Shown here: positions 16,536-63,387 of the stretch, piece by piece
How the letters are laid out: every line of letters begins with the position of its first letter
Position numbering within the stretch: position 1 is the stretch's first letter
From: Anaerolineae bacterium
GTDB taxonomy: Bacteria; Chloroflexota; Anaerolineae; Epilineales; JAHCIE01
Assembly: GCA_039810085.1 (NCBI GenBank)
Contig: JBDHWG010000009.1
Span: 12,609-76,608 of the forward strand
Length of the DNA stretch: 64,000 bases
Direction of reading: 5' to 3'
The notes under the pieces: model-generated
What the model was told of the DNA's origin: nothing
Seen by the model: the letters and a program-made list of their open reading frames with translations, nothing else
Database searches by the model: none
Program-made: the position numbers and the translations under genes

Positions 16536-16588
16536 TTCTTCTGACCAGCGCAATTCTTCTGGACGGCTCGGCAGGTCGTCATTCTGCT

Positions 16589-17644: not shown

Positions 17645-17707
17645 CTGGCTTTAGTGAACGGAGAGCTCAAGCCGTAATTATAGCCTCGCCTCACGAATTG
17701 TCGAAGG

Positions 17708-18285: not shown

Positions 18286-18287
18286 AC

Positions 18288-18318
18288 AACGAACGCATCA
18301 TAACATAATGCGTTCGTT
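18288..18318. promoter_or_regulatory. Inverted repeat AACGAACGCAT-N9-ATGCGTTCGTT immediately upstream of brnT start (putative operator)
   Basis: 11-bp perfect arms read in sequence, 3 nt from brnT ATG. Confidence 0.3.
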
Positions 18319-18652
18319 GAAACAAGGGGTTCGGTTGTACTCTATGTCGCCTAATGCTCATTTTACGTCATGAGGGCATAGTGGGGTTTTAGGCGTTGGG
18401 ATGAGGTTTTTTCAATTATGGAGAAGACGGGCGCAAGAGGGATGAGCCGAGTTTCAACCTATAACCGTCGGTCGAGCTGGCTCTAGGCCACAAAAAAAGA
18501 GAACTGACGACAGGAAGACTTGGGAGTAAAGAGAGCGCGTTTCGCGCAGAAGCACCAGTTGGCGCACTCTTCGTCCATTGTCGATCCTTTTTCTTGTCGT
18601 AGTTCTCTTTCTTCAGCGCTCCAAGCGCTGACCTCATTCCTCGCGGATGATT

Positions 18653-19471: not shown

Positions 19472-19869
19472 GTTGTTACTGTCCCAAATAGAACAGCGCC
19501 CAGAGACCTCATTGTGAGATATCCAAGCGCTGTCCTATTCAGGCAAGGAGACGGTTGAACCGATTGAGTCAATTATTTGTCCGCAAAGAATTAATGTGCA
19601 TGCAAAACAGAGAAACATCTGAGACGCACTGCCTCTGTTTCTCAATCCGCAACCTCATATTATACCCTATAGTCTGATTTATGTCAATACCAACTCCCTC
19701 TCGTTCCCTACAGTCCCCCCTCTTCCTAACCACAGTCGAGGCAAAACCACCCCTATGGCCTCCACTTCCCCGCTCTCATCTTCCTGGCAGCGGCCACACT
19801 GACTGCCTGCGGCAGTCAGACCTCTTCGGCAAACCGCCGAAGGAGCACCCGGAGCCCGAAGCGCCGTAG

Positions 19870-20140
19870 CGGAGCCGTCCTGTGGCGAAGCGGTCAGCCG
19901 GAGCGAGCAAGCGACCGGCGCGAAACGAGCGGGGTACAAGCGGACGAGGCCAGGCGAGCAGTCTGACGAGGTTCGGGGAGTCAGTCTGCGAGCCGACTAG
20001 GGCCGAAGGCCGCAGCCCGCGAGTGCAGCAGAGGAAGCAGCGAGCGAAGGCCAGCGAAGCCACGAAGACCGGCGCAGTGGAGGCGCGAAGGGTCGCCGCG
20101 AAGCGAGCGAAAGCCCCGTGCTAACGGGGCTTCAGAGGGC
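19870..20140. repeat. GC-rich non-coding tract with at least 6 GCGAAG/GAGCGAA motif repeats and several hairpins
   Basis: Direct reading: GGCGAAGCGG, GCGAGCGAAGGCC, CAGCGAAGCC, GCGCGAAGGG, CGCGAAGCGAGCGAAAGCC; hairpins CTGACTGCC-TGC-GGCAGTCAG (about 19797) and GCCCCG-TGCTAA-CGGGGC (about 20115). Confidence 0.3.
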
Positions 20141-28666: not shown

Positions 28667-28703
28667 CAAGACCTGACAGGTTTTGGAAACCTGTCAGGTC
28701 TTG
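28667..28703. repeat. Perfect 37-bp palindrome CAAGACCTGACAGGTTTTGGAAACCTGTCAGGTCTTG in the 68-bp intergenic gap between two GT-C genes
   Basis: 17-bp arms read directly; core shared with 39372-39400. Confidence 0.5.
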
Positions 28704-28708
28704 CTTGC

Positions 28709-31700
28709 CTACTGAACATCCACATCCAGCAGCAGGCGATTGTCCGGCTGCGCTGCGCCCGACGTGTCCCGTATGGGAAGCCGCGCCCCAGCCGCGTCGT
28801 ACCACCCAACCGCGATTTGATACTTACCTGGCGCTGTGCCAGGCGGAACAGTGAGGGTGTAGGGGTCCACGACAACCTCGCCCGCCTGCCACCTGCTTGT
28901 CGGATAGTGGCCGAGGCCCGGCGCGCGGTCGACCTGGCTGATAATCGAGCCATCCGGCGCGAGCATATGCACGAAGACCTTATAGTCCACCGGCGTGGGC
29001 GCGTCAGCCTTCCAGTAGAGCGTCACATCCAACGGCGCGCCCGGCGTTGCCTGCACCGCATCGTAGCCGAGCAGATGCGTTGACGCGCCGATAGTCGCGC
29101 CCGCTGCGTGTTGCGGCGGTCGGGGCGGCTGCGTCAGCGCCGTCGGCCCATCTACCCACACCCGGCCTAACACGACCGGCGACGGGAGTAGCGTCGTTCC
29201 GCTCTCGTCGACGACCTGCAACTCCACCGTCGCCGGACCACGCACTGCATCCGCCGCGACCTTGGCATGGCGAATGCCGTTGAAGACGTCGCCCGGCTGC
29301 CAGGCTTCAGGCGCGAGTTGTACCGGCAACAGGCTCTGCGGTGTCTGGGCTGCCGCGCCGCGCGCGTCGCGCACGCTCAGCACGACCCGCGCACCCTTCA
29401 CCGGCCCCGTTGCCTGCCACCACAGCGGCACGTCCACGGTGTCCCCCGGCTTGACGTCCCTATCGCCCTGGAAGCCATGCCCCAGTAAACGCAGGCCCAC
29501 CAGCGTCAGGTCCGCGTCCAGCCGCGCCGGCACGTCCACCTTCGTCGGCGCAGCCCCACGAGCGACGGATACCTTGCCTAAGGTCACGCTCTCCACCGGC
29601 CCGACCGCCTCGTTGTTGTTCGGCTTTTTGAGCCGGACGCGTAGTGTATACTCGCCTGGCGGCGTCGTGGCGGGCAGTGTCAAAGGCATCAGAGTCGTGT
29701 TAGTCGTACCGAGCGCCCAGGTGGTCGCCGGACGCAGTGCGCTATCCCGCAATGGCCGCTCGGCTGTCAACACAATGCCGCCCTCGGGGTCGAGCACATC
29801 GACGGCAGCAACCAGCGGCTCGCTCACCGGCGCGTTGACGCGCCAGGCCAGGCTCACGCCCTCTGGCTTACCAGCTTGCAACGCCGCGCCGCCTGCCCCC
29901 CAGCCGCCAAGGCTCAGCGGCCCCAGGGCCGCATTGGCAGGTTGGCTCGCAGCGGGCGCCGTGCGGAAGCGCCACACTTCCACGTCGGGGAACTTCCTCG
30001 GACCGGACTCAAGTATAGCCGCTTCCCTGAGCGCGTCCAGGGCTGCGCCTGGGTCGCCTTCTGGATAGCGCAGATACCACAGGCGTTGGACGGGCGGCAG
30101 CGCCGCCAATGCCCCCGCCACATCTGACGCCTGGAAGTGGCCGAAGACCTGCGCCACGGGCATCCCCGGCGGCGTCGAGCGCGCCGCCAGCGATGCTCCG
30201 TTGACCACGAAGCCATCGCCGGGTTGCGCCGCCTGCGTGATATACGCCAGGGGGGCGGTCGCCGTCGTGTTGGTGTAGATCCAGGCGTAGTCGATGCCGT
30301 CGATGCTGACCACCTTCAGCGGCTTCTCATCCGGGTTGTCATAGTAGCGGTTCACGAGGCTCTGGTTGCGCTGGCGCTGTACTTCGTTGAGATAAAGGAC
30401 GATGTAGTCCGTCTGGTAGGGGCGAAAGCCCGGCGCGCTGCGTGTCTCGCCGACGAACAGCGGCGCGAACTGCGATACACCCCGCGCCGCCACCTGGAGG
30501 TCGTTCGCATTCGGCAGGGTGTTCAGAAACGCCGCTGCCTGGTCGTAGCCCTCACCCCACCCCACCAGCAGCCAGCGCACGGCCGCCTGCCCGCCACCGA
30601 GGAGCGGGTTGTAGTACGTCAGGTAGTAGGGCGCGTGGGAGACGGCTATCGCCGCTTCCGTCACCAACACCAGCACGACCGCCACGACAGGCAACCACCG
30701 AGCCAGGCTCAGGCTGGCCCGCGCCCGCCGCGCCGCCACCCACCCGGCCAGCCACGTGACAGCGGCGGCAAGCCCCGCGCCCGCCACGAGGTCCAGCGGC
30801 GGGAACATCGGCAGGATGTAGCGGTCGAATTTCTTCGGGCTGAAAGAAATGAGGACGGCGAAGATGAGAGCGTAGCTCGCCAACCCGACAACGGCGTAGA
30901 CGAACGGGGAGGGTGACAGAACGAGCTGGCGCAGCGATCTCCGCGCCCGATACACTGCCGTGCCGACGCCAACGACCACGATGCCCAGCCCCAGCAGCGT
31001 CCAGGGAGAGGCGCGGAAGCCGTAGGCGACGATATACATGAACGGGCCGGGGTCGTCCACAACCTCTTCGTCGAACACGTTGCCGCCCGCGTGGGGGTTA
31101 CCGCCCTCGACCGCCGCTTTGTCCGCCACGCCGCGCACCGTTCCGACCGGGTTACTCCACGCCGACGGCCAGATGAGCAGGACGGCGATCAGCCCACCGA
31201 CGGCGAACAGCAGTGTCGCTCGAATCACCCCCCGCAGCCGCCGGTCGCGCCAGCCGAGGTAGACCAGCATGAGAACGGCCCACGGCCATAGGAACACCGC
31301 CGCCACCTTCTGCACCAGGGCCGCGCCCGCGAGGGCTCCCGCTGCGATGAGCCAGCGCCACGAAGATTCCCCACCCTCGCTCAGATAGGACAGAAACGCC
31401 GAGGCGCTGAGGCGCTCAGAAGAAACGTTTTGATGTTCTTCCTCTGCGTCTCTGCGTCTCTGCGTTTCTATCCTCTTAGCGTCCTCGACTTGTGGGCGAG
31501 TCGTCAGCAGCGTGAGGACGCTCAGCACGAGCAGGCTGCTGAGCGTCGCGTCGAGGTGGAACACGCGACTGTGCGCCATCACGAACGGATCAAAGGCCAG
31601 CAGCGCCAGTCCCAACACCGCCGCGAGCGCGCCGAGCAGCCGCCGCGCCAGCCAGTAGATGGGGATGAGCAGGAGCCAGTTGAACAGGGCGGGCGCGAAG

Positions 31701-32038
31701 CGCATGCGGAACAGAAGCGCCGCCAGGCCAGCGAGCGCCTGGGCATCGACGCCGGACGGCGCGCTCGCATTCTCCGTCGCCCGGCACGTGGCGAGGACAT
31801 CGGGCGCAGCGCCGGGCGGAACGGCCAGCGTGCCCAGCCACATTGTAATGACGCCAGGGTGGCCGGTCAGAAACGTGCTGCGCGGTTGAAGCGACGCGAG
31901 CGCCTGGCCGAACGACAGCGAGCGGCACACCCAACGCAACTCGTCGGCGGCGACGAACACATCGAGGCGGCTCAGTCTTGCCATCAGCGCCGCGAGGAGG
32001 ATGACGACGGCCAGCGCGTCCAGCCAGCGACCTTTCAA
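28709..32038 (-). CDS. GT-C fold membrane glycosyltransferase (PMT_2/ArnT-like) with tandem C-terminal beta-domain repeats (paralog 2)
   Basis: 1109 aa; DEL motif after TM1, many TM helices, C-term repeats (GYDAVQATPGAPLDVTLYWKA...YKVFVHMLAPDG...GKYQIAVGWYDAAGARLP); ATGA overlap with upstream paralog. Confidence 0.75.
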   Translation of the reverse strand: MKGRWLDALAVVILLAALMARLSRLDVFVAADELRWVCRSLSFGQALASLQPRSTFLTGHPGVITMWLGTLAVPPGAAPDVLATCRATENASAPSGVDAQALAGLAALLFRMRFAPALFNWLLLIPIYWLARRLLGALAAVLGLALLAFDPFVMAHSRVFHLDATLSSLLVLSVLTLLTTRPQVEDAKRIETQRRRDAEEEHQNVSSERLSASAFLSYLSEGGESSWRWLIAAGALAGAALVQKVAAVFLWPWAVLMLVYLGWRDRRLRGVIRATLLFAVGGLIAVLLIWPSAWSNPVGTVRGVADKAAVEGGNPHAGGNVFDEEVVDDPGPFMYIVAYGFRASPWTLLGLGIVVVGVGTAVYRARRSLRQLVLSPSPFVYAVVGLASYALIFAVLISFSPKKFDRYILPMFPPLDLVAGAGLAAAVTWLAGWVAARRARASLSLARWLPVVAVVLVLVTEAAIAVSHAPYYLTYYNPLLGGGQAAVRWLLVGWGEGYDQAAAFLNTLPNANDLQVAARGVSQFAPLFVGETRSAPGFRPYQTDYIVLYLNEVQRQRNQSLVNRYYDNPDEKPLKVVSIDGIDYAWIYTNTTATAPLAYITQAAQPGDGFVVNGASLAARSTPPGMPVAQVFGHFQASDVAGALAALPPVQRLWYLRYPEGDPGAALDALREAAILESGPRKFPDVEVWRFRTAPAASQPANAALGPLSLGGWGAGGAALQAGKPEGVSLAWRVNAPVSEPLVAAVDVLDPEGGIVLTAERPLRDSALRPATTWALGTTNTTLMPLTLPATTPPGEYTLRVRLKKPNNNEAVGPVESVTLGKVSVARGAAPTKVDVPARLDADLTLVGLRLLGHGFQGDRDVKPGDTVDVPLWWQATGPVKGARVVLSVRDARGAAAQTPQSLLPVQLAPEAWQPGDVFNGIRHAKVAADAVRGPATVELQVVDESGTTLLPSPVVLGRVWVDGPTALTQPPRPPQHAAGATIGASTHLLGYDAVQATPGAPLDVTLYWKADAPTPVDYKVFVHMLAPDGSIISQVDRAPGLGHYPTSRWQAGEVVVDPYTLTVPPGTAPGKYQIAVGWYDAAGARLPIRDTSGAAQPDNRLLLDVDVQ

Positions 32039-34731
32039 GGCTTCACCGTAATGTGGCCCAGGACAGCGTGGTCGCCCTCGGTATCCGCGCCCTGAGCAAG
32101 CAGGCGCTGGAGCGTTTTGGCATCGTAGAGACCGACGCGCAAGGGGTAGCTGCCCGGCAGCGTGGACGGGTCAATCGAGATACTGCGCGACTCGATAATC
32201 GTCTCGCCCGGCTGCCACTGTGACGTGGGGCTGGCGCCGGATGCGGGCCAGCTGTCACTCTGGCCGTGAATAATGTCGTCCTCGACGTGGGCAAAAACAC
32301 TCAGGTCTGCCCCCACTTTATCCGTTGGCTGCCAGAAGAGCGTCAGGCCGAACGGCTCACCGGCTTTCACAATCGACGAGGTCAGCTCATAGCCCAACAA
32401 CCGCACCGAGCCGAGCATGGCGTCTGTGCGCATGGCGGGCGGCGCTTCCGCGAGCGCCTGGCCGATGGGGAAGGTCGGGCCGAGATATGGGTCGAAGCGC
32501 GCAGCATCCGCCAGGGTGTAGTAGCGCGGGGCAGCCACCGGGTCCCGGCTGTAGATGCGCAGCTTGGGCGCGCCGTCGGCATCCACGTCCGCCAACAGGT
32601 GATACTCCTTCTCGATGCGGTTGAGCGGAATTTTCACCGCGTCCTGCACATCCTGGGCAACGATGTAGTAGCGCGGGTTGGCGGCGGAGCGCACCGCTCC
32701 GCGCGTGTACCAGCCCGTGACCAGCGGCTCCTCGTTGCTGTCGTAGTCGCCCTGGAGCGTGCCGTCGGCGAAAAGCGAGCCGACGATGCTCCAGCCCGCC
32801 TGGTACGGGAAGCCGAAGTAGCCGCTACTCGGGGGACGATCACCATAGACGGCGGGGTACAACGGGCTGCGCGCCGCGGGATAGATGCGTTTATACTCTG
32901 GGCTGTGGCTCACGAACGCTATCCAGATGTAGCCGCCGAGCAACAAAACGAGTAGCCCGCCGACAGCCATGAGGGCAAAGCGCGCCGAGCGCCCGAATCG
33001 CGCCTGGACACCTTGCGCCAGTGCCGCCACGCCAAGGCCCGCGAGAAGCGCCGCGCCGGGCATCATGGTGTAGAAATGGGTGGTCGGCTTCTGCGTCAAG
33101 AAGCTCGCCACCAGGAACGGCCCCAGGAACCACAGGAGTGTCGCCTTCACGCCGTCGTCGAGGCGCGGCGCCAGCGCCCACAGCAAGAGCGGCAGAAAGA
33201 GAAATAGCGAGAGGTTGTACTTGCCAACGCGCAACGCTTCCGGCGCGGCGGCAGCGACCGCCAGGGCCAGCACAGGCCAGGCCAGGGCAAGCCACCGCCC
33301 GTGGCGGAAGCCACGCCAGCCGAGCCAGGCAAACACCGCGACGAGCGCCACGGCGAGCAGGACAATGTACCACGTCGAGTTGTAGAATGTCGCGCGCAGG
33401 AAGTAGTCGGCCAGCTTGTTATACAGCGGCCCACCAGCCGCCGCCGCATTGCCGACGCCGACGCGGCGGTTGATGATATAGTCAACTGTCTCACGGAAGT
33501 GGGGGTGCAGCGCGAACGGCGCGTAGAAGAAGGCCGCAATGGCCGCACATACCGCCGTCGGCGCCATCAGCCCACGCAGCCCACCCCGCCGCCACAGCAG
33601 GTACGCCACCGGCGGGATGGCGAAGACGGCCTCGTAGTGGCCCAGGCTCCCCGCCGCGACGAGCGCCCCTGCGACGACAGCCCACCGCATTCGCCCGCCC
33701 TGGTAGTAGCGCCACGCCGCCCATACCGCGACAATCGATGTGAGCGCGACGATGCTCTGGTACTGCACGATGCGGCCAAACGCCACAAAGTAGCCATCCA
33801 GCGCCAGGATCAGCGCAGCGACCAGCCCCTCACCCCCTAGCCCCCTCTCCCAAAATGGGAGAGGGGGAACAAGAGGGGCGTTCTGGCTCCCCTTCCCCGC
33901 TTGTGGGGGAAGGGGCTGCAAGAGCATGTCATCGCGAGCAGAGCGAAGCGATCCCTCACCGGGAGATTGCTTCGCTGACGCTCGCAATGACACATCAGGG
34001 CCTGACGAGAACAGCCGCCAGCCGAGCGCGCCGATGCCAAATACAGCGGCGACGTTCATCAGGGCGAAGGGCAACCGCGCCGAGGACTCGTCGATGCCAT
34101 CCGTCGCCGCCCAGACGAGCGCCGGCATGAGCACCTCGCCCGGCGCTTTCTTGTGGAAGAACAGGATTTCGCTGCGTCCCTGCCCCAACCCCGCCGCCAT
34201 CAGCATGGCGCGCGCCTCGTCGCCCTGGAACTCGGAGTAGCTCAGGAACGTCAGGCGGAAGACCAGGGCCAGGGCGACCGGGACCGCCAGCCACCACAGA
34301 GCGCGCACGCGAACAATTGCCGGACGCGCGGCGGTCGTTCCGAGGGCCAGCCAGCCCGCCAGAACGAGCAGCGCGCCGTCGAAAGCAAGTAGCACCGGGG
34401 CGCGGGTCATGGGCGTCGGCAGGTAAGCGACCGCGAGGCTCAAGACCAGAGCGCCCGCTACCGCTAGCGCCGCATCGAGGGCGAGGCGCTCCGGCCACGC
34501 GACGCTTTCGCCAGCCATCAACCGCTCGGCGACAAGCACACCGGGCAGAGCAAACAGAACGATGGCAGCCGTAGCGCGGACGAACAAGGGAACGGGGAGG
34601 AAGAGGAGGAGGTTCGCAACCAGCGCGACAGCAAGCGCAACCAGGGCAAACCATGCCCAAGGCCGCGCGGCGAGGCGTGTCGCGGGAGAAGCGGGGCCGG
34701 CGCCGGCCATCGGGAGACCCGAATCGGCCAT
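32035..34731 (-). CDS. GT-C fold membrane glycosyltransferase (paralog 3) carrying an approximately 57-aa low-complexity in-frame insertion
   Basis: 898 aa; GDE motif, TM-rich N-half, C-term LGYELTSSIVKAGEPFGLTLFWQP...VFAHVEDD...GSYPLRVGLYD repeat. Confidence 0.75.
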   Translation of the reverse strand: MADSGLPMAGAGPASPATRLAARPWAWFALVALAVALVANLLLFLPVPLFVRATAAIVLFALPGVLVAERLMAGESVAWPERLALDAALAVAGALVLSLAVAYLPTPMTRAPVLLAFDGALLVLAGWLALGTTAARPAIVRVRALWWLAVPVALALVFRLTFLSYSEFQGDEARAMLMAAGLGQGRSEILFFHKKAPGEVLMPALVWAATDGIDESSARLPFALMNVAAVFGIGALGWRLFSSGPDVSLRASAKQSPGEGSLRSARDDMLLQPLPPQAGKGSQNAPLVPPLPFWERGLGGEGLVAALILALDGYFVAFGRIVQYQSIVALTSIVAVWAAWRYYQGGRMRWAVVAGALVAAGSLGHYEAVFAIPPVAYLLWRRGGLRGLMAPTAVCAAIAAFFYAPFALHPHFRETVDYIINRRVGVGNAAAAGGPLYNKLADYFLRATFYNSTWYIVLLAVALVAVFAWLGWRGFRHGRWLALAWPVLALAVAAAAPEALRVGKYNLSLFLFLPLLLWALAPRLDDGVKATLLWFLGPFLVASFLTQKPTTHFYTMMPGAALLAGLGVAALAQGVQARFGRSARFALMAVGGLLVLLLGGYIWIAFVSHSPEYKRIYPAARSPLYPAVYGDRPPSSGYFGFPYQAGWSIVGSLFADGTLQGDYDSNEEPLVTGWYTRGAVRSAANPRYYIVAQDVQDAVKIPLNRIEKEYHLLADVDADGAPKLRIYSRDPVAAPRYYTLADAARFDPYLGPTFPIGQALAEAPPAMRTDAMLGSVRLLGYELTSSIVKAGEPFGLTLFWQPTDKVGADLSVFAHVEDDIIHGQSDSWPASGASPTSQWQPGETIIESRSISIDPSTLPGSYPLRVGLYDAKTLQRLLAQGADTEGDHAVLGHITVKP
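33826..33995. repeat. Composite palindromic element inside GT-C paralog 3 CDS: G-rich hairpins (33841-33867, 33889-33915) plus a 64-bp imperfect palindrome (33928-33991)
   Basis: CCCCCTCTCCCA-AAA-TGGGAGAGGGGG; CCCCTTCCCC-GCTTGT-GGGGGAAGGGG; GTCATCGCGAGC...GCTCGCAATGAC also seen at 50548-50610 and 59213-59249. Confidence 0.5.
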
Positions 34732-37826: not shown

Positions 37827-39878
37827 CTAGGGGTGAGGGACCGGCGTCGCCAACTGCACGTAATCGCCTTCGACGCGCTGCCCGTCCACTGTGACCGGCA
37901 GCCGCGCGCCGCTCGCCAGGTCATACATGCCTACCTGGAGCCATAGCTCGCTCGGCGCGTCAGGCGGGAGGGTGATGGAGCGTTCGTCGACGATAATCTG
38001 CCCTGGGTCCCAGGTCGAGGCTGGCGAGACGCCATGCTCGGGCTGGCCGTCGCTCTGCCCGTAGCCCTTGCCACTCGCATCCACCAGGTGCGCGAACACC
38101 GTGTAGTCGATGTCTTGCCCCGCAATGGCGCGCGAGTAGAGCGTGAGGTTAACCTTCTTGCCGTCGGTCGCCAGGGCATAGCCGAGCAGGTCGGCGGCAT
38201 CGCCGAGACGGGCACTCTGCGGGTGCTGAATCTCGGCCGGGTCGAAGCGGCGATAGAGAACGCGGTCCTTCTCGCGCATCGCCGGCACGTAGCGCGCCTT
38301 GATCCAGGCCATGTAACCGTCGAGGCGGTCCAGCCGTCCGTTCCAGAGGACGATGGCGGGCGGATTATACTTAGCCACCGTTGCGATGGCTTCCTCGTTG
38401 GTGAGCTGCCCGGTCTCGATGCGCTTGGAACTTTGCGCCGCAAGCCACGGAATCTGCGTGCGACCGGCGCGAAAAGCAATCATGGGCGGGTCGGCGACGA
38501 TGATGTCCGTCGGCGTCGTGTGCGTCTTGACCCAGTCGGCCGCCGCCAGGAGCGAGCGGTACGGGCCAGGGTCAATCAGATCGCCCAGGTCGGACGCCTG
38601 CCCCGGCGCACGCACCGCGATGAGCGCCAGGGCCGCCAGGGTAACGGCGACCGACACCGCGCCCGATTGACGCGGCGCACGCAGGCTGTCCCATACCCCG
38701 GCGACACCGACAGCGGCCAGAGCGACCAGGGGAAAAAGGAACAGCATGAAGTGATGCTTGGCGAACAGCGGGCGCTGATTGACCAGGACAAGCGCCGTGA
38801 GCGCCAGCCAGCCGAGCATGACCAGGCCGGCATAGCTCCGCCGCCGCAAGAGCGTCCACGCGCCGACAACCGCGAGCGCCGTCACGCCCAGGTTCTCGAC
38901 GGTCATGTACTCCAGAAGCCACTGGGCATACTCCGGCGTCCGGTTAGGCCAAACGTCTCGCGCGGCGAGAGGTGTTGCAAGCGCCTGCGCCATGAAGCCG
39001 CGTACATCGAAAAACAGGAGAAAGGGCGCCCCCACGAGAAGTAGGCCGACGGCCAGGGCAGCCATGCCGCGCCCCGCCTCGCGTACGCGGTTCGGCGCGC
39101 GCCAGACGCCGGGTAGGGCAAAGGCGGCGAGCGGCGCGCTGTAGAGCGCGGCGGTCAGCTTGAGCCACAGCCCCCCGCTGAGGAACACACCCGCCAGGAA
39201 CAGCCAACGCGCCCGTCCCGTATGACCATAGATCAATGCCAGAGCTACCGCCAGCGTTGCCAGACTGACAGAGGGAATGTCGTGGCTGACGGAGCGCGCC
39301 AGCCAGAAGAAATTGGGCGCGAGCGCCATAAGCAGAGGCGCGGCGACAGCGGCGATACCCGGGTTGAGCAGACCTGACAGGTTTTGAAAACCTGTCAGGT
39401 ATGTGCCGGTAATGCGATCCCGCCGCGCCGAGACGCAGATGCCGGCGGCGAGACTCGCGACGGCGGCCAGGCCGAGCAGCCCATACAGAAGAACGACGAG
39501 CCGCCCGCTCTCGACACTCTCACCGAAGACGCGGAAGCCAGCCAACAGCGACAGGGGAACGCCCGGCGGCTGGTCCAGCCAGATGTCGCTGTACAGCCGA
39601 TACCCCTGTCCCATGAGCTGCGCCTGCACAAGCTGGATGCCCTCGTCCGCGTCCCACTGCGTCGCCGACAGCCAGCGCGAGTAGACAAGCCCGACGACGA
39701 CAACCACAAGCGCAACGCCAATTACCGCCACTACCGTCGCCAGCCCCCATTGTACAAGTGGCTTATTGAATTCTTTCGTCTGGACCTCGGTAGCCAGCTT
39801 CTCTCTCCCTACCCCGCCGTTTTTCCTCTGTGTCCTCTGTGACATCTCTCCGTTCACAACGGCTTCAATGGTACGCAA
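37827..39878 (-). CDS. GT-C fold membrane glycosyltransferase (PMT_2/ArnT-like, paralog 4) with one C-terminal beta-domain
   Basis: 683 aa; WDADEGIQL motif after TM1; C-term NLTLYSRAIAGQDIDYTVFAHLVDASG...WLQVGMYDLASGARLP. Confidence 0.75.
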   Translation of the reverse strand: MRTIEAVVNGEMSQRTQRKNGGVGREKLATEVQTKEFNKPLVQWGLATVVAVIGVALVVVVVGLVYSRWLSATQWDADEGIQLVQAQLMGQGYRLYSDIWLDQPPGVPLSLLAGFRVFGESVESGRLVVLLYGLLGLAAVASLAAGICVSARRDRITGTYLTGFQNLSGLLNPGIAAVAAPLLMALAPNFFWLARSVSHDIPSVSLATLAVALALIYGHTGRARWLFLAGVFLSGGLWLKLTAALYSAPLAAFALPGVWRAPNRVREAGRGMAALAVGLLLVGAPFLLFFDVRGFMAQALATPLAARDVWPNRTPEYAQWLLEYMTVENLGVTALAVVGAWTLLRRRSYAGLVMLGWLALTALVLVNQRPLFAKHHFMLFLFPLVALAAVGVAGVWDSLRAPRQSGAVSVAVTLAALALIAVRAPGQASDLGDLIDPGPYRSLLAAADWVKTHTTPTDIIVADPPMIAFRAGRTQIPWLAAQSSKRIETGQLTNEEAIATVAKYNPPAIVLWNGRLDRLDGYMAWIKARYVPAMREKDRVLYRRFDPAEIQHPQSARLGDAADLLGYALATDGKKVNLTLYSRAIAGQDIDYTVFAHLVDASGKGYGQSDGQPEHGVSPASTWDPGQIIVDERSITLPPDAPSELWLQVGMYDLASGARLPVTVDGQRVEGDYVQLATPVPHP
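39372..39400. repeat. Perfect 29-bp palindrome ACCTGACAGGTTTT-G-AAAACCTGTCAGGT embedded in-frame in GT-C paralog 4 (encodes TGFQNLSGL)
   Basis: 14-bp arms read directly; same core as 28667-28703. Confidence 0.5.
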
Positions 39879-42858: not shown

Positions 42859-44863
42859 TCATTTTAGTAGCATCTCCGGTGTCACCTGGACTTTGCCCAG
42901 CGACACGCTCTCGCCCAACGGTCTGCCATCCGGCCCACTCACCGCCAGGTTGTGCTGCTCGCGCGCGTCCCACATGCGCACCTGCACGTCATACCCGCCA
43001 GGCGCCAGGTCTTTCGGGAGGTCGAGGACGGTCACACCGCGCACGGGCACACCGACGGGAAAGGCGGCGGTCGCCAGCCAGGCCGTGCTCGGCGCCTGGT
43101 TGTGTGTCGCCACAACGCGGCCCGAGGCATCCACCAGGTTGACGGTAACGGTGTAGTCTCGGTCGAGCGTCTGCTCAGCCCGCCAGTAGAAGATCCAGCG
43201 CAGCGCGCCCGGCTCGTCGCCGAACGGATCGACGCCGGTGAGCGTGAGCCGGTCGGCGTATGTCGCGCCCACTGGCTGCTGCGGCGTCGGGATGGCGACG
43301 ACGGGCGACCAGTCCTTGATGTTGAAGCGCATCAGGGTGTAGCCCGGTATCTGGGTGCGGATGAACGGCTCCCCCTCGCTGCGCCGGGACAGCTCAGCCA
43401 GCACCATCCCCGTGGGATCGGCAAACTCGTGGTGCCACAGGATGACCCAGACGCGCCCGGGGTGACGCGCCAGGAGATCGTTCAGCACACGCGCGCCGTT
43501 CTCGAAGTCGTAGCCAACGTGGATGCCCCACTGGGGCGTCGTGCCCTTGTAGTAATAGTTGAAGGCATACGGCGCATCTTCGACCAGCACGATGGCGTCA
43601 TCGTCGGCGCGGGCGCGGTCCATGAGGTACTGCGCCATCCGACGCGCGTCCTCCTGCGGCGACCACGAGGTTTGCGCAGCGCGCACGGCCTCGCGTCCTG
43701 AGAAGGCGAGCGCTGCGACGAGAATGACAACGTAGGCCAGGCGAAAGACCTGCTGACGCCGCCACAGGGCCTCGAACGCGAGCATCACCAGCGCCACGTA
43801 GAGCGCCGGCGCAGCGACGATGGCATAGCGCGCCGCGAACTTGGGCGCAAGCGTTACGGCCACCCCTGTGAGAGCAATCGGAATCGCCGCCGCGAGGACG
43901 ACCAACAGCTCACGCCGCGCCAGGCTCTTGTCTCGCAGCCAGCGTCGAATCAGGAACAGCGCCGCGCCCACGACCGCGAGCCCCAGCAAGAGCAGCGCCA
44001 GACGTGTCGAACCGATGGCGAGGAAGCTGCCCAGGATGCGGCCAATGACGCCTAGCGGATCCAACTCCGCCGGGAAGAAGTCGGGGTGGGCGGCCAGCCG
44101 CGCCATCTGGGCTGCCGTAGGCGCAAGCCACGGGAGATAGGCGATGAACGCCAGGGATGCAGCCGCCAGCCAGCGCAGGAACACACGGCGTCCGGCTAGC
44201 GCCGCATAGATGAACAGGGCGGGCAGCAGAAGCGCGGTGAGGTAGAGCGTGTACAGCATCCCGGCCAGCGCCGCGCCATGCAACGCCCACGGCCACACGT
44301 CTATCCAGTTTCTGATACCCCTCTGCTCCCCCTCTCCCTTTGTGGGAGAGGGGGGTGGGGGGGGGGGTACTCCGCGTCGCCCGCAGCAGGGTTGCCACGG
44401 CTAGTAGACCCCACATCGCAGCCAGGCTGTACATGCGCGCTTCCTGCGACGTGTAGATGAGGAACGGCGATAGGGCGACCAGGAGCGCGGCGGGAACGGC
44501 CGCGAACAGCGCTGCGATGCTCGAGCGCGTGCGGCCCGCGTAGACTTCGGCCAGGGTGACGTAGGCGAGGGGAATCAGCAGAACGCCGGGCGCGAGGCTG
44601 ACCCAGCGCACGGCAAACTCGCTCTGGCCCGCGACAAGCATCCAGGCATGGAGGAGCAGATAGTACAGCGGGGGGTGCAGGTCCTCCCGCACCAGGGTGG
44701 TCATCATGGCGGGCAAGGGGCGGCCCGCGAAATTGACGCTCAACCCCTCGTCAAACCACAGGCTCGCATCGCCCAGGGACCAGACCCTAGCAGTGAAGGC
44801 GACAAGTGTCACCCCCAGCATCGCCAAGGATGCCCAGCGCAACGGGCCAAACGATTTCGTCAT
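42859..44863 (-). pseudogene. GT-C fold glycosyltransferase (paralog 5) interrupted by a single frameshift at a G11/C11 homopolymer; N-part 44368-44863, C-part 42859-44367
   Basis: ORF 43910-44863 has WFDEGLSVNFA GT-C N-terminus then loses frame at TPPPTPLS (poly-C); ORF 42859-44298 continues the TM-rich body in another frame. Confidence 0.6.
44350..44367. repeat. Homopolymeric tract G6-T-G11
   Basis: Read directly: GGGGGGTGGGGGGGGGGG; coincides with the frame switch between ORFs 43910-44863 and 42859-44298. Confidence 0.6.
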
Positions 44864-49084: not shown

Positions 49085-50536
49085 TCACGCCTCAGCCTTG
49101 ACGCCGGCCAGCGCCACGCCGGCCCGCAAGATATCCTGCACCTTGTCCTGGCGCGTCGTCTCGGTGTACACGCGCATCAACGGCTCGGTGCCGGAGAAGC
49201 GAATGAGCAGCCAGCCCGCTCCGTCCAACTCGTACTTGTAGCCATCCATGCGGTTGACACGGTTGACCTTGATTCCCGCAATCTCCTGGGGGTCGTCGCC
49301 ATCAAGCCTGGCCTTGATTTCCGCCCGCTGCGATGAGGGGAAGGTCATGTCAATGCGGTCGTAGTAGTGCGCTCCGACTTTGTCGAAGAGCATCTGCACG
49401 AGCTGCGACGGCGTCTTGCCTGTGCGCACCATGAAGTCCATGAGGTACAGGCCCGCCAGGATGCCGTCGCGCTCCGGCAGGCCACGGAAGGCGAAGCCGC
49501 CGCTCTCCTCGCCGCCCATCATCGCGTTCGTCTCGACCATCTTGGGGCCGACGTACTTAAAGCCAACGCCCGTCTCATACACCGGCACGTCATACAGCCG
49601 CCCTAGGCTCTCCAACATGGAAGTGGTCGAGAGTGTCTTCACAATCGGGCCGCGCTCGCCGCGATACTCCAGGAGATACAGGGCGAGCAGGCCGTAGACC
49701 TGCAACTGGTTGATGAAGACGCCGTGTTCGTCGCCCGCGCCGACCCGGTCGGCGTCGCCGTCGGTCATGATGGCGATATCGGCGCCTACCTCGCGCACCT
49801 TCGCCAGCGCCACGTCGATGTTGGGTGGAATTGGCTCCGGCCGCGACATCTCGGGAAACACCGGGTTGCGCACATCGTGCAGGAACGTCGGTTGCGTCTT
49901 GCCACCGACCAGCAGGCGCTTCCAGTAGGGCGCGCCCACGCCCCACATCGGCTCGATCACCACCTTCAGCCCGGCGTCGCGGATCTTCTCGACGTCCACG
50001 TTGGGGTAGATGCGGCGCTCGAAGTAGGCCGGCGCCGGGTCGAACAGCTCCACCAGGCCCTTCGCCTGGGCCTCCTTAAGCGGCATCCGCCGGGCGTTCG
50101 CCGCGTCGCCGATGCGCGCCTCGATCTCTTTCAAGGCATCAGGGGCAATCGCCGCGCCAGTCTCCGAGCGCACCTTGTAGCCACAGTCCCACGGCGGGTT
50201 GTGGCTGGCGGTGATGTTAATGGCCGCCGCCGCGCCCCGGTCGACGACCGAGAACGAGATCACCGGCGTCGGCGTGCCGCGGTCGGTCAGGTGCGCCTTG
50301 ATGCCGTTCCCCGCCATGACCTCGGCAGCAGCGGCGGCGAAGAACTCGGCCTCGAAACGGTTGTCGTAGCCGACGATGACACCGCCATCGGCCGCACCGA
50401 TCAGCTTGAGATAGTCTGCGAACGCCTGGCTGACGCGGCGAACGTTGTCGAATGTGTAATCCTCGGCGATGCGGGCGCGCCAGCCGTCCGTGCCGAAAAC
50501 AATATTACCGGCCATTCCGCTCTCCACTTGTGACAA
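49085..50536 (-). CDS. Phosphomannomutase/phosphoglucomutase (alpha-D-phosphohexomutase)
   Basis: Active-site [12 protein letters not shown]; four-domain length (483 aa). Confidence 0.85.
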
Positions 50537-50547
50537 AGTATATTACC

Positions 50548-50610
50548 GTCGTTGCGAGCGTCAGCGAAGCAACCTCCCGTCGCGGGATCGCGTCGCTCCG
50601 CTCGCGATGA
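50548..50610. repeat. 63-bp imperfect-palindromic repeat filling the PMM-gmd intergenic gap (copy 2 of family)
   Basis: Reverse complement GTCATCGCGAGCGGAGCGACGCGATCCC...GGGAGGTTGCTTCGCTGACGCTCGCAACGAC roughly 90% identical by eye to 33928-33991. Confidence 0.5.
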
Positions 50611-50611
50611 C

Positions 50612-51628
50612 TTAAACCCGGCTTGGGACGCGCTCGTTGCGCAGCGCCGTCAGGTCCGCCTCGACCATCATCTCCACCATCTGCTCGAACGAGACGTCCG
50701 GTGTCCACCCCAACTCCGTCCGCGCCTTGGTCGCGTCGCCAACCAGCAAATCCACCTCGGCCGGGCGCAAGTCCGACGGGTTGACGTAGACGTAGTCTTC
50801 CCAATTGAGGCCCACACACCCAAACGCCACCTCGCACAGCCGACGGACCGAGTGGGTCATCCCCGTCGCCACAACGTAGTCGCCGGGCGCGGGCTGCTGG
50901 AGCATCAGCCACATGGCGCGAACGTAGTCCGGCGCGAAGCCCCAGTCGCGCTGCGCCTCCAGGTTGCCCAGGGGCAGGCGGTCGACCAGGCCGAGCTTGA
51001 TCTTGGCGGCGTGATACGTCACCTTGTGGGTCACGAACTCAAGGCCACGGCGCGGCGACTCGTGGTTGAACAGAATGCCGGAGCAGGCGAACAGGTCGTA
51101 GCTCTCGCGGTAGTTGACCGTGATCCAGTGGCCGTAGACCTTTGCCACGCCGTAGGGACTGCGCGGGTAGAACGGCGTGCGCTCAGTCTGCGGCACCTCC
51201 TGCACCTTGCCGAACATCTCGGAGCTGGATGCCTGGTAAAACCGGATGTCCGGATCCACCATCCGAATCGCGTCGAGGACGCGCGTGACGCCAAGCGCGG
51301 TCGCCTCGCCGGTGAACACCGGCTGCACCCATGACGTTGGCACGAAGCTCTGCGCGGCAAGATTGTAGACCTCGTGGGGCCGCGTCTCACGGAGGATGGA
51401 CATGAGCGACACTTCGTCCATCAAGTCGCCCGGTACGAGGGTAATCTGATCCTGGATGTGGCGGATGCGGTCGAAGTTGACGGTGCTGGTGCGCCGCACC
51501 ATGCCGATGACCTCGTAGCCCTGCTCCAGGAGCAGTTCTGCCAGATACGAACCATCCTGGCCGGTGATTCCGGTAATCAATGCGCGCTTTCGCTGCGACA
51601 CGCTTGGTACTCCCTTCTTGTGCCCCAC
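50612..51628 (-). CDS. gmd: GDP-mannose 4,6-dehydratase
   Basis: [25 protein letters not shown]...[11 protein letters not shown]...[10 protein letters not shown] canonical GMD. Confidence 0.9.
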
Positions 51629-58861: not shown

Positions 58862-59049
58862 AAAAAAATGTCTCTCCATGCGCACAGAGAGACACTGCTG
58901 CAAGGTCTCTCATCTTTCAGGCGCTTCGCCTGCCGGAGTTGGCACCAGGCGCGGATGATCTCGGCTGGCGAGCTTACGCTCGCGTCACGATCCGGGCTGG
59001 TTGCCGGGGCTTCACAGGGCCGTTCCCTCCACCCCTCTGGATAAGAGCC
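58862..59049 (-). ncRNA. SAM-I (S-box) riboswitch with intrinsic terminator, in the leader of the mtnA-pfkB-GNAT-ahcY-metK operon
   Basis: Minus-strand RNA reads CUCUUAUCCAGAGGGGUGGAGGGAACGGCCCUGUGAAGCCCCGGCAACC...GGUGCCAACUCCGGCAGGCGAAGCGCCUGAAAGAUGAGAG, then terminator GUCUCUC-N10-GAGAGAC-AUUUUUUU. Confidence 0.8.
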
Positions 59050-59212
59050 AATCTTTAATTGTCGCAGAATACTAGCACACTCACGCCGCCGGGTCAAATT
59101 AGGGCCGGCCCTTGTGAAGAGGACGGCCGGGGTGCGGGGGCGATAGCCCCTGCCGACAAAGCAATCTTTCGGCAGGCGACAGACGGTCTGAGCGGTTATA
59201 GCGTGACTATCA

Positions 59213-59249
59213 CCCGTCGGGAGATTGCTTCGCGTTCGCTCGCAACGAC
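59213..59249. repeat. Partial (3-prime half) copy of the 64-bp palindromic repeat family, just downstream of ccmC stop
   Basis: CCCGTCGGGAGATTGCTTCGCGTTCGCTCGCAACGAC matches CGGGAGATTGCTTCGCTGACGCTCGCAATGAC of copy 1. Confidence 0.35.
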
Positions 59250-59253
59250 GCGG

Positions 59254-59967
59254 TTAGCTCGGTTGCACTTCAGCCGTGACGGGCTGCGGGTGGGCAGCGA
59301 CCTCGATCCGGTCGCGCTCCACTTCCAGGGACACGCGCAGCGCCATCAAGAAGACATACACCAGGGTGAACGAGAGCATGCCGGCCACCAGGGCCAAGAC
59401 CATCGGCTCGCTCATCGCCGGGCCGCCGGGCCGCACGACAATGGGCTGCGGGTGCAGCGTGCGCCACCAGAGGACGGCGAAGTGGATGATGGGGATGTCC
59501 AGCGCCCCGACGATACCAACGATGGCGGCGAGGCGGGCGCGGCGCTCCGGGTCGTCCAGCGCGCTGCGCAGCATCAGGTAGCCCACGTAGATGAGCCACA
59601 TGATGAGGAAGCTGGTCAGGCGCGCATCCCAGGTCCAGTACGTGCCCCACTCCAGCTTACCCCACAGCATGCCGGAAATGAGGGTAATCGTCGTGAACAG
59701 CACGCCGATTTCGGCTGACGCCAGGGCGATAATATCCCAGACATGGGTGCGCCGCCACAGGTAGAGGATGCTGGCGATAGCGACGACGCCAACGGCGAGA
59801 TACGACGCCCAGGCGGATGGCGCGTGGAAATACAGAATGCGGATCGTGTCCCCCATCGTGCGCTCTGGGGGCGACCAGACCAGGCCCAGGTAGAGGGTAA
59901 CGAGCATCGAGATGGCCGTGGCAATCCCCAGACCCCCCACAATCGGTCTCAAACGTTTGGTGGTCAT
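59254..59967 (-). CDS. ccmC: Cytochrome c-type biogenesis heme exporter protein C
   Basis: WWD domain LWGKLEWGTYWTWDARLTSF. Confidence 0.85.
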   Translation of the reverse strand: MTTKRLRPIVGGLGIATAISMLVTLYLGLVWSPPERTMGDTIRILYFHAPSAWASYLAVGVVAIASILYLWRRTHVWDIIALASAEIGVLFTTITLISGMLWGKLEWGTYWTWDARLTSFLIMWLIYVGYLMLRSALDDPERRARLAAIVGIVGALDIPIIHFAVLWWRTLHPQPIVVRPGGPAMSEPMVLALVAGMLSFTLVYVFLMALRVSLEVERDRIEVAAHPQPVTAEVQPS

Positions 59968-61563: not shown

Positions 61564-63387
61564 CTACGGCGTAGGCTGCGGCGCGGCCACATAGATGAGC
61601 GGCAAATAGACAAGATGCGGCGTCGGTGTGGGCGTCGGTGTGGCCGTCGAGGTATGCGTTGGCGTGACCGTCGACGTGCTCGTCACCGTCCGCGTCGGTG
61701 TTGACGGGCGCGTCGACGTCGGGGTGGTCGTCGCCGTTAGCGTACTCGTCGGCGTCAGTGTGATTGTCGCCGTTTCGGTCGGCGTCTCGGTGAGGAGCGG
61801 AGTCGGCGTGAGCGTAGCCGTCTCTGTCGGAGTGAGAGTCAGCGTAGCCGTTGGGGTTACCGTCGGCGTCTTGGTGGCCGTTGCCGTGGGTGTCACGGTG
61901 GGTGTGAATGTGGCTGTCGGTGTGGACGTCACCGTCGGAGTCGTGGTCAAGGTTGGCGTGCGCGTCACCGTGGGTGTGTTGGCGGCCACGATGTTTGTGA
62001 TGGTTGTCGAGCCGACCATGCCTTGCCTCGGCACAAAGCTGACATTCAGCGTCGTGGGGCTTGAAGTGACCGGCGGGCTGCTGGCAATAGCTTCATACGT
62101 CACGCCGACATAGCTGTAGCCAGACGCCGCCGATGGGACATGCACCTCGGACAGGACGCACGAGCTAATCGCCGGAATGTACGGGATGTTGAAGAGAACG
62201 GCGCCATTGGGGGCGACATTCTGGGTGGCGTTGGTTCCGGCGACGGGCTGGCCGTTACTATCAAAGCAGCCGAGGAACAACGTGAAGACGTCGCCGGCCA
62301 CATAGCCCTCCACAGGCCCTTGCAGCCGCTTCGTAACCGTCAATACGCCGAGGCCAAACGGCGTGGCGGTGGGCGTCATCGTGCTGGTCGGCGTCACCGT
62401 CGCGGTTGCCGTGTGCGTCGGCGTGTGGGATGGGGTTGATGTGCTGGTCGGTGTGGCGGTGGACGTGGGCATGGGCGTATTGGTCGGGGTAGGCGTATCC
62501 GTCGTGGTAGGCGTATCGGTCGCGGTGGCTGTGGCTGTGTTCGGTAGCGTGGGTGTAATGGACGGTGTGTAGGTCGTTGTCGGGGTCAGCGTGATCGTCG
62601 GCGTGAGCGTGATGGTCGGGGTCGGCAGGTCAGGCTCGAAGTCATACGCCGTGCTGTTGTCGTCCAGGCCAACGGTCAGGGCGTCGACATTCCCGTCGAA
62701 CGAGTTCCAGCCTGTCCCCGCCCGGAGCGCCAGGCTACCCACAACGTAGCGGATGCCTGCGTTGGGGAAGCGCTCAAGGAAGTCGTGAAGGGTGCAGGGC
62801 AGGGCAGGGACGCAATAGTTGTTGCCGGGCGAATCGGTGGCGTACCAGCCCGCTGTGTGAAGGGCGTCCCACGTCTGCCACGCGCCGGTGTTGACGGTCG
62901 CCCCCGTCACCGACGGGTCGAAGATGAAATCGCCCTGGTAAGAGTTGTCGGCGTCGAGAAGATTATAGTCAATGCTCAAGTGGAGCTTGGCGGCCTGGCC
63001 GGGCGGATCGCTGGCAGTTTGATACGTGCTGTACGTCAGTTGAGTGAGTCGGCTCAGAGGAGTTCCCGCGTAGGATCGTGTATATATAGCGCCGCTGGCC
63101 CATGCGCTGTTGATGAGGAAGTGGAAGCTGCCAATGCCCATCGGCGGAATGTCAGGCCCGGTAACGAATTCCAGCACGGGCGCTAGAGCGTCAGGCGCGT
63201 ACGCCCAACCGTTCAGGGCCAAGGGCCGTACCGTGACCGTGGACAGGCTCTTGGGTGTCACCGTTGGGGTCGGGGTAAAGAAAGGGCCTTGGGCCGCCGC
63301 AGGTAACGGCCCAGTGGCCGCCAGGCATACGCCCACGAGCAAGCCACACCCCATCAGCCACAGCAGTGGATGCTGCCACATTTTCAT
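61564..63387 (-). CDS. Secreted protein with signal peptide and long (T/P)TxTPT linker repeats
   Basis: 607 aa; MKMWQHPLLWLMGCGLLVGVCLAATG signal; three PT-rich tracts separating globular segments. Confidence 0.65.
   Translation of the reverse strand: MKMWQHPLLWLMGCGLLVGVCLAATGPLPAAAQGPFFTPTPTVTPKSLSTVTVRPLALNGWAYAPDALAPVLEFVTGPDIPPMGIGSFHFLINSAWASGAIYTRSYAGTPLSRLTQLTYSTYQTASDPPGQAAKLHLSIDYNLLDADNSYQGDFIFDPSVTGATVNTGAWQTWDALHTAGWYATDSPGNNYCVPALPCTLHDFLERFPNAGIRYVVGSLALRAGTGWNSFDGNVDALTVGLDDNSTAYDFEPDLPTPTITLTPTITLTPTTTYTPSITPTLPNTATATATDTPTTTDTPTPTNTPMPTSTATPTSTSTPSHTPTHTATATVTPTSTMTPTATPFGLGVLTVTKRLQGPVEGYVAGDVFTLFLGCFDSNGQPVAGTNATQNVAPNGAVLFNIPYIPAISSCVLSEVHVPSAASGYSYVGVTYEAIASSPPVTSSPTTLNVSFVPRQGMVGSTTITNIVAANTPTVTRTPTLTTTPTVTSTPTATFTPTVTPTATATKTPTVTPTATLTLTPTETATLTPTPLLTETPTETATITLTPTSTLTATTTPTSTRPSTPTRTVTSTSTVTPTHTSTATPTPTPTPHLVYLPLIYVAAPQPTP

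Follow-up and report, generated by a model that had tools for sequence, protein, structure and literature searches.

Three places in one stretch of a genome from an uncultured Anaerolineae lineage (Chloroflexota) carry the same palindromic sequence, one of them directly behind the stop codon of a GDP-mannose 4,6-dehydratase gene (gmd). What are these repeats, how did they come to lie where they do, and do they matter to the genes beside them? In this study we followed them through the window, by which we mean the whole 64-kb stretch of DNA analysed, as well as through the genomes of relatives and through collections of viral and species-representative genomes. The explanation that we favour overall, at a probability of roughly 0.75, is that they are non-coding, non-autonomous repeats of the CGTC-type REP class, spread in trans.

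Repeat copies in the window and anatomy of the unit

An earlier note on this DNA had described three loci sharing a palindromic sequence, of which two were full copies approximately 90% identical by eye. The three loci hold up in place and in content: the right-arm pattern GGGAGRTTGCTTCGCNNNCGCTCGCAAYGAC (31 nt) occurs three times in the window and not once in 100 dinucleotide-preserving shuffles, and a unit profile trained solely on units of other genomes, when run on the window, recovers exactly five units, at least one at each locus, with no other match (Table 1). Copies 1 and 2 are mutual reverse complements over 64 nt, with 89% of positions matching by alignment. This identity, together with profile E-values down to 1e-12, shows the common descent of the copies.

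Table 1 Repeat copies, matched units, neighbouring genes and state of the orthologous sites
Feature	Position	Strand	Description
Copy 1	33928-33991	-	compact 64-bp doublet, two inverted units, TGTC tags outward
Copy 1, units	33928-33955; 33961-33991		stems ATCGC/GCGAT and ATTGC/GCAAT, respectively
Copy 1, profile matches	33961-33992; 33926-33953		E 1.5e-12 and 4.5e-6, respectively
Copy 2	50548-50611	-	compact 64-bp doublet, units ATCGC/GCGAT and GTTGC/GCAAC
Copy 2, profile matches	50547-50578; 50593-50611		E 1.6e-9 and 0.02, respectively
Copy 3, intact unit	59217-59249	-	minus strand CGTC-GTTGC...GCAAT-CTCCC
Copy 3, profile match	59219-59250		E 1.7e-9
Copy 3 doublet, remainder	59129-59216		decayed second unit 59129-59170, spacer 59171-59216
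Copy 3, whole doublet	59129-59249		about 120 bp, long spacer
GT39/PMT_2-type membrane glycosyltransferase gene	32035-34731	-	898 aa, uninterrupted ORF, Pfam
Two palindromes of other families	33828-33871; 33880-33918	-	stacked beside copy 1
Phosphomannomutase-family gene (PMM)	49085-50515	-	476 aa, downstream of copy 2, ATG at 50515
gmd	50612-51628	-	upstream of copy 2, stop codon 50612-50614
SAM riboswitch	58907-59047		Rfam
Promoter-like site of the riboswitch	59097-59069
ccmC-type cytochrome c assembly gene	59254-59967	-	upstream of copy 3, stop codon 59254-59256
gmd-PMM junction, window and L247			compact doublet
gmd-PMM junction, L246			long type-L doublet
gmd-PMM junction, L245			empty, 5 nt from stop codon to ribosome-binding site
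gmd-PMM junction, L244 (more distant)			empty
ccmC site, L245			singlet with GAAC loop, same as window copy 3
ccmC site, L247			no recognisable element
ccmC site, L246			unit of related GTCATGCTGAGC type

As read from the units of the window, the repeat is built from modules of about 28-31 nt. Each comprises an unpaired YGTC tag and a 5-bp basal stem with the consensus ATYGC/GCRAT; next to the stem comes an internal loop rich in G and A, which reads GA in its 5' strand and GAA (in one case GAC) in its 3' strand, and beyond this loop an apex. The tail is rich in C (CCA, CTC or CCC). The apex is either GC-G(N)NA-GC or a longer, covarying apical stem. The tags of the five window units are TGTC, TGTC, AGTC, CGTC and CGTC, the A of AGTC in copy 2 being part of the gmd stop codon TAA; their apex loops are AGA, GTCA, GGA, GTCA and GAAC, and their tails are CCC or CTCCC. 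The basal stem is ATCGC/GCGAT or ATTGC/GCAAT in three of the five, and GTTGC in the other two.

Copies 1 and 2 are heterodimers of two hairpin units, with the tags pointing outward and a centre of 4-5 nt between them. Within each doublet the basal stems of the two units differ, each being perfectly self-complementary within its own unit, whereas pairing from arm to arm leaves mismatches or wobbles; compensation therefore takes place within the unit. Structure prediction agrees with the palindromic character noticed earlier, as both full copies are predicted to fold into long, stable hairpins (-36 to -44 kcal/mol, z -3.3 to -6.7), while the copy 3 fragment folded alone gives no stable fold (z about 0). 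Copy 3 had been regarded as a partial copy. One intact unit is indeed present, but it belongs to a long-spacer doublet whose partner unit has decayed: when positions 59095-59257 are aligned with the doublets of STL-CHL21 and STL-CHL22 (L139, L158, L223 and L231), the decayed unit is seen to retain the GGGGC-GATA-GCCCC apical hairpin, GACAAAGCAATCT and its 3' half, its 5' basal half being gone. The tally for the 64 kb is two doublets and one decayed doublet.

Gene context of the copies and turnover among relatives

Copy 2 was said to fill exactly the gap between gmd and PMM. It occupies 64 of the 96 nt: it begins 0 nt after the gmd stop codon, and the 32 nt left between it and the PMM ATG contain the GGAGAG ribosome-binding site of PMM, whose start is backed by a database protein (P0121) identical over 476 aa. 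A weak promoter-like match overlies the 3' arm of copy 2 and may be due to chance. Copy 3 begins 4 nt after the ccmC stop codon and lies upstream of the promoter-like site of a SAM riboswitch, which heads the gene row mtnA-like / PfkB / GNAT / AdoHcy hydrolase / metK. The suggestion that these intergenic copies act as terminators is not borne out: no T-run follows the stem of copy 2 or copy 3 on either strand, a terminator scan makes no call at 50300-50800 (copy 2) nor at copy 3, and the hairpin of copy 2 stands between the two genes of the gmd-PMM pair.

Copy 1 lies in frame within the GT39 gene. Its minus-strand translation, VSLRASAKQSPGEGSLRSARDD, had been dismissed as a spurious peptide, but at this locus it is a stretch of 22 residues translated as part of the GT39 protein within the 898-codon ORF. 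Together with the two neighbouring palindromes, copy 1 forms a 54-codon in-frame insertion in one protein loop, and the GT39 match to Pfam picks up again at residue 301, at position 51 of the 160 in the profile. No database record matches the GT39 protein of the window exactly, and relatives were therefore compared. The same loop contains the repeat-encoded peptide in four close homologues (80-86% identity), and homologues at 35-44% identity lack any insertion there. At the DNA level, copy 1 begins at the identical gene offset, nt 740, in the window and in the orthologues L123, L124 and L125. Its first unit is 90-100% identical among these four genomes, compared with 78-81% for the 600 nt of coding sequence upstream of it and 56-61% for third codon positions. 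L123 retains solely the first unit of the doublet, and 3' of the doublet the four genomes have unrelated sequence, with the reading frame kept in all. It follows from these comparisons that the insertion is old and that the GT39 gene is still under selection. The unit itself has changed far less than neutral or even coding sequence, a constancy that may come either from selection on its sequence or from homogenisation by other copies. A paralogue carries a fourth palindrome family in the equivalent loop. A loose-pattern match in L123 (12819-12838) was rejected as a chance match in coding sequence.

The earlier note had also called the family mobile, and the orthologous sites bear this out. An element lies at the gmd-PMM site in the window, L247 and L246 but not in L245 and L244, and the ccmC site varies as well (Table 1). 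Such occupied, empty, remodelled and decayed states among relatives are direct evidence of turnover. Moreover, the idea that the family might consist of these copies only is contradicted in the relatives, which carry further related copies elsewhere in their genomes (L139, L145, L158, L223 and L231). Near-identical doublets, spacer included, recur on six contigs of one deltaproteobacterial MAG and on four contigs of one Elusimicrobia MAG, and the doublet must therefore have been amplified as one piece. Judging from these sequences, it is very likely that the family has been mobile, in the past or at present.

Distribution across phyla and assignment to the CGTC-tagged REPs

A looser pattern, GCTTCGCN{3,4}GCTCGCRAYGAC, matched at least 120 stretches of the viral collection, on contigs of 33-72% G+C, and a stricter pattern with 26 specified bases matched at least 118 stretches in species-representative genomes; the 238 loci discussed below are the 120 viral and 118 genome loci among the matches listed. 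A core of about 27 nt is nearly unchanged in more than 20 phylum-level lineages, as judged from record titles, and in virus-like contigs, across 31-72% G+C. By title the carriers include Bacteroidota, Alpha-, Beta- and Gammaproteobacteria, several Patescibacteria groups, Chloroflexota, WOR-3, Desulfobacterota-type lineages, Zixibacteria, Nitrospirota, Nitrospinota, Elusimicrobiota, Calditrichota, Cyanobacteria, Clostridia, Planctomycetota, KSB1, Atribacterota, Latescibacterota, Oligoflexales, Auribacterota, Schekmanbacteria, Campylobacterales, Caldisericales, Ratteibacteria and Aerophobetes. Cultured isolates with the core are Calothrix sp. CCY 0018, Mucilaginibacter rivuli and M. pedocola. 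Since the flanks of the core have the composition of their hosts (31-70% G+C), reagent contamination is no explanation. A BLAST search with the consensus doublet places the family on finished replicons of Novosphingobium, Methylobacterium, Methylosinus, Legionella, Aulosira and Calothrix, one Novosphingobium replicon carrying it at no fewer than 40 places, and prophages of Helicobacter canis carry the core. No occurrence of the core was found in 5,426 E. coli genomes, and a BLAST search of plasmids with the window copy gave no match. A literature look-up by sequence strings and repeat-encoded peptides returned nothing relevant.

The wider set repeats the anatomy of the window units. Among the viral-locus matches listed, the tag is CGTC (142) or TGTC (77) in 219 of 228 units (96%), and the tail is CCA in 88 of the 228 and CTC or CCC otherwise. 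Among the matches listed, too, the apex loop is GNA in 108 of 135 three- or four-base loops (80%; GAA 51, GCA 25, GTA 17, GGA 15) and GNNA, with N free, in 106 of 120 four-base loops (88%), while the first basal pair is A-T in 116 of 134 units. The rare basal change from T-A to C-G is compensated inside the unit, in the wider set and the window alike. Many doublets have one unit with a longer apical stem of unrelated sequence that nevertheless folds at the same place; 51% of these stems, for the matches listed, are individually significant against shuffles (p <= 0.05).

Gene context was counted at low-G+C loci, where ORFs are reliable. There, 56 elements lie between unidirectional genes, 16 between convergent and four between divergent genes. 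The distance to the upstream stop codon has a median of about 50 nt, with 17% of elements within 15 nt, and orientation with respect to transcription is unbiased (15 vs 22), as it is mixed in the window.

Di Nocera, De Gregorio and Rocco (2013, BMC Genomics 14:522; PMC3733652) split REPs into GTAG- and CGTC-tagged superfamilies. In their account, CGTC repeats have the tag CGTC (variants TGTC, often, and CCTC), a stem that almost always opens with A-T pairs at positions 1 and 2, and mostly a CCA tail; they are mostly inverted dimers with variable spacers, often heterodimers, they lie within 20 bp of ORF 3' ends, and some dimers are found in frame within genes, where they encode 20-30 aa. Members include dRS3 of Neisseria and RPE-4 and RPE-6 of Rickettsia. 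The paper reports no associated transposase, and describes the tyrosine-transposase genes of CGTC-positive species as having no flanking CGTC repeats; the hosts that it names belong to five phyla, Chloroflexi not among them. The repeats studied here share with those so described the unpaired CGTC/TGTC tag at one end, the AT-first stem and the C-rich tail (CCA in the wider family), as well as the predominance of inverted dimers, the position near ORF 3' ends, the in-frame intragenic dimer and the lack of a linked transposase, here in the window and near the motif at the 238 loci. On these sequence features we are confident that the window repeats are CGTC-type REPs.

The outer frame CGTC-ATTGC...GCAAT-CCA is common to the present unit and the published family CGTC-3 (PMC3733652), the CGTC-3 peptide VIAGLDPAIH corresponding to GTCATTGCCGGG...CCCGGCAATCCA. 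The four families described there have stems of 8 bp (families 1 and 2) or 9 bp (families 3 and 4) with loops of 4 or 5 nt, whereas here the stem has 5 bp, and beyond it come a GA/GAA internal loop, an apical stem of at least 2 bp and a loop of 3-4 nt. In Additional file 3 of the same paper, CGTC-1 (VIPAKAGI, DSRFRGND) and CGTC-3 have peptides unlike those of the present repeat, families 2 and 4 being compared by text alone. Because stem, loop and peptides differ from those published, we regard the present repeats as a further CGTC family in a new host phylum, and not as members of families 1-4 (for 2 and 4, by description). They differ further from the CGTC repeats of that account in being one sequence type found across more than 20 phylum-level lineages.

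Several other known systems were compared. GTAG REPs, BIMEs and REPINs are alike in their short palindromic units, in doublets forming long hairpins, in singlets that are decayed doublets and in the position 3' of genes; a further listed trait is hundreds of copies per genome, to be set beside five units in the 64 kb of the window. They differ in that the present tag is YGTC, with no GTAG or CTAC flanking any unit, in the lack of a flanking RAYT in the 64-kb window or at the 238 loci, and in that the present sequence is not lineage-specific. Rickettsia palindromic elements (RPE) resemble copy 1 as in-frame palindromic repeats tolerated in loops and kept in orthologues of several species, but are of another sequence type and host, and copy 1 shares its loop with palindromes of two further families. 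Rfam gave no match at the repeats, neither in the window at the gathering threshold, where the SAM riboswitch was the only hit, nor at 16 loci with typical doublets at the same threshold, nor for the two full copies at relaxed E <= 10, microRNA-type hairpin noise apart. A tRNA/tmRNA scan found none. To our knowledge, attC sites, ribozymes, kink-turns and tRNA-like CCA minihelices offer no convincing fit to the unit. The apex does fit, N being free, the consensus of the DNA mini-hairpins d(GCGNAGC)/d(GCGNNAGC) of Hirao and co-workers, described as ultra-stable and as resistant to nucleases and heat (PMC13037366). This is a resemblance in sequence only: the mini-hairpins were defined biophysically on oligonucleotides, and the abstract of that review states no link to dispersed genomic repeats.

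Spread, possible effects and significance

We propose that the folded single-stranded unit would be recognised, and copied to new sites, by a trans-acting activity rather than by a neighbouring transposase. New copies would be retained mainly close behind genes, on the 3' side, and now and then in protein loops that tolerate them, where the harm is small. Where transcribed, a doublet would form a very stable hairpin, which could protect the upstream mRNA against 3' exonucleases; if it starts no more than about 15 nt from a stop codon, as do copies 2 and 3 (0 and 4 nt), it could also damp termination and expression of the upstream gene, as E. coli REPs do. Indeed, REPs less than 16 nt from a stop codon lower translation in E. 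coli (Liang et al. 2015, as summarised in PMC12306157). Copy 1 would be a passenger that simply adds 22 residues to an inter-helix loop of the GT39 enzyme. By analogy, the role of mRNA stabiliser raised by the earlier note is plausible, and an RNA-level effect of the repeat on its upstream gene is a tentative idea that we hold to be somewhat doubtful. The unbiased orientation and the mini-hairpin apex fit a constraint at the DNA level at least as well as one at the RNA level. A picture of purely selfish, drifting repeats is also incomplete, because the core is near-invariant across phyla and inside a coding loop.

These last observations lead to a different explanation, in which the repeats are DNA-level elements selected by the host, for example an ssDNA or cruciform site for a conserved replication, repair, topology or recombination protein, and have not spread selfishly. 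Such a site would agree with a core that hardly varies between contigs of 31-72% G+C, with the 90-100% conservation of the coding-loop unit against third codon positions at 56-61%, with compensation inside the unit and not between the arms, with the lack of orientation bias with respect to transcription, and with an apex fitting the consensus of DNA mini-hairpins that resist nucleases and heat. However, the spread is patchy, to the point of absence from 5,426 E. coli genomes, close relatives differ in whether a site is occupied, decayed units are tolerated, and no candidate partner protein was found. The copies also lie 3' of genes and are rare in divergent promoter regions, a placement that points to effects at the transcript level or to tolerance of insertion. 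We consider host selection as the explanation of the family quite unlikely.

Spread as REPINs, the doublets being moved by a single-copy RAYT encoded elsewhere in the genome as for the GTAG REPs of Pseudomonas and E. coli, has a slim chance of being correct. It would account for the inverted doublets, for singlets that resemble decayed doublets and for whole doublets amplified within a genome, and the source genome was examined over 64 kb only. The lack of target-site duplications at the copies also agrees with it, as none is expected from Y1 transposition. The tag is YGTC and not GTAG, however, and the search for a cognate RAYT that the earlier note had proposed came out negative over the range covered. 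With a single E. coli RayT query, phmmer (E <= 10) gave no hit in frames of at least 70 aa in the window, the 120 viral loci and L121, nor within about 2.5 kb of the motif in the 118 genome loci, and a Pfam scan of 30 window ORFs found no Y1_Tnp and no other transposase. RAYT-linked REPs are lineage-specific, whereas the present core is the same in more than 20 phyla. The account of tyrosine-transposase genes without flanking CGTC repeats in CGTC-positive species (PMC3733652) likewise speaks against it. When proteins within about 2.5 kb of the motif were clustered, only ordinary phage or GTA structural genes (portal, terminase, capsid, tail) recurred at the viral loci, and no family was present at more than five of the 118 genome loci. 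A small GIY-YIG-like protein lies near the motif at three of these 118 loci. Regarding the mobilising agent, we lean towards one other than a classic flanking RAYT.

The earlier description of the repeats as REP/MITE-like stands for its first half, a dispersed REP-like palindromic family, and falls for the second. A classical MITE would be a deletion derivative of an IS with terminal inverted repeats, moved by the DDE transposase of that IS, and the small size, inverted-repeat ends, dispersal and presence/absence polymorphism would suit it; but there is no target-site duplication at copies 1-3, either arm folds into a hairpin of its own that shows covariation, singlets are common, and neither a parent IS with these ends nor a transposase near the motif at the 238 loci was found, which leaves it highly improbable. 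That the copies are independent functional hairpins (terminators, cis-regulatory or small RNAs), alike by function and not by origin, is scarcely credible: very stable hairpins do stand directly after the gmd and ccmC stop codons, but they have no T-run on either strand and no terminator call, copy 2 separates gmd from PMM and is closely followed by the ribosome-binding site of PMM, copy 1 lies within coding sequence, and Rfam gives no match at gathering or relaxed thresholds.

The annotation of the window is corrected in two respects. What copy 1 encodes is no spurious peptide but 22 residues of a glycosyltransferase loop, and the 3' regions at gmd-PMM and ccmC have a predicted hairpin at a position from which REPs of E. 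coli are known to lower the expression of the upstream gene. A bolder possibility is that the core YGTC-ATTGC-GA-GC-G(N)NA-GC-GAA-GCAAT, as some of the most widely conserved non-coding DNA of bacteria, and 90-100% identical in a protein loop with neighbouring codons diverged to saturation, implies a phylum-spanning partner that spreads and homogenises the repeats; we think this unlikely. If true, this partner could be an enzyme recognising the GNA mini-hairpin on ssDNA, or a templated copying process, and either would be a new type of machinery that mobilises or maintains the 'orphan' CGTC REPs. With a core identical across phyla, phylogenetic profiling is a feasible way to look for the missing partner, and the lineage offers natural contrasts between occupied and empty orthologous sites, compact and long-spacer doublets, and intact and decayed units. 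Thus the lineage and the pattern scans together make two old questions more testable, namely what moves the CGTC-type REPs and why their core is the same across phyla.

Palindromes of other types in the window

Besides the CGTC-type REP units, a second palindromic family, ACCTGACAGGTTTTG(G/A)AAACCTGTCAGGT, was found in the window, with two copies that match at 94%. The copy lying within the GT39/PMT_2 paralogue translates as TYLTGFQNLSGLLNP, a 15-residue insertion that is lacking in the paralogues and sits in the loop equivalent to the one that hosts copy 1 of the CGTC units. Palindromes of two more types, the first of which encodes the peptides PLPFWERG and PLSQNGRGG, are listed with the other features in the table.

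Features located in the window
Feature	Position	Strand	Remarks
ACCTGACAGGTTTTG(G/A)AAACCTGTCAGGT copy	28671-28701		Intergenic, immediately past the stop of ORF 28709-32038
ACCTGACAGGTTTTG(G/A)AAACCTGTCAGGT copy	39370-39400		In-frame within ORF 37827-39878, another GT39/PMT_2 paralogue
Palindromes	33828-33871, 44324-44367, 33880-33918		Types CCCCCTCTCCC-N4-GGGAGAGGGGG and CCCCTTCCCC-GCTTGT-GGGGGAAGGGG
SAM riboswitch, complete	58907-59047	minus	RF00162, 85.8 bits
Promoter-like site of the riboswitch	59097-59069	minus	
Terminator-like hairpin	58896-58867	minus	

Repeat types and a small ORF in other genomes

The CCCCCTCTCCC-N4-GGGAGAGGGGG type directly adjoins CGTC units in five phage-like contigs (L002, L009, L068, L070 and L116), and is also found in protein loops of paralogues in the relatives L245 and L246. 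Furthermore, a related unit type, GTCATGCTGAGC...GCGAAGCA, whose peptide family is '...AQHD', was observed in the relatives L124 (4500-4730) and L246 (about 900-960). In these sister genomes it adjoins or replaces the ATTGCGAGC type, one unit of which, in the L124/L246 regions, bears a 36-nt apical insertion.

At three of the 118 listed loci from genomes (L159, L179 and L190), the repeat unit is accompanied, at a distance of up to about 2.5 kb, by a small GIY-YIG-like ORF (MTNKRHSVLYVGVTSKL...), at 2115-2441 in L159. These three loci come from different phyla and are too few for an association to be called.

Surroundings of copies 2 and 3

At copy 2, a weak sigma-70-like match (9/12) was seen on the minus strand at 50537-50564, comprising CTGACG, a 16-nt spacing and TATACT; chance alone would give 0.2 such matches over the surrounding 500 nt. 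The 3' arm of copy 2 holds the -35 element, and the -10 element lies just before the ribosome-binding site of the phosphomannomutase-family gene. Downstream of copy 3, the riboswitch region (58867-59097) precedes a row of genes comprising mtnA-like, PfkB, GNAT, AdoHcy hydrolase and metK.

Other features of the window

The stretch 1-20000 resembles a defence island, with an AAA_22 ATPase, an N6_N4 DNA methylase, McrBC and its AAA_5 partner, RadC and DUF2321; several of its ORFs (8712-9977, 10033-11082, 11131-12588 and 15555-16535) gave no Pfam match. Imperfect short-period tandem repeats (6/12-nt and 8-nt) occur at 428-803 and, on the minus strand, at 61564-63387. The latter fall within a 607-codon ORF that has no Pfam match, which suggests that this ORF encodes a low-complexity repeat protein.
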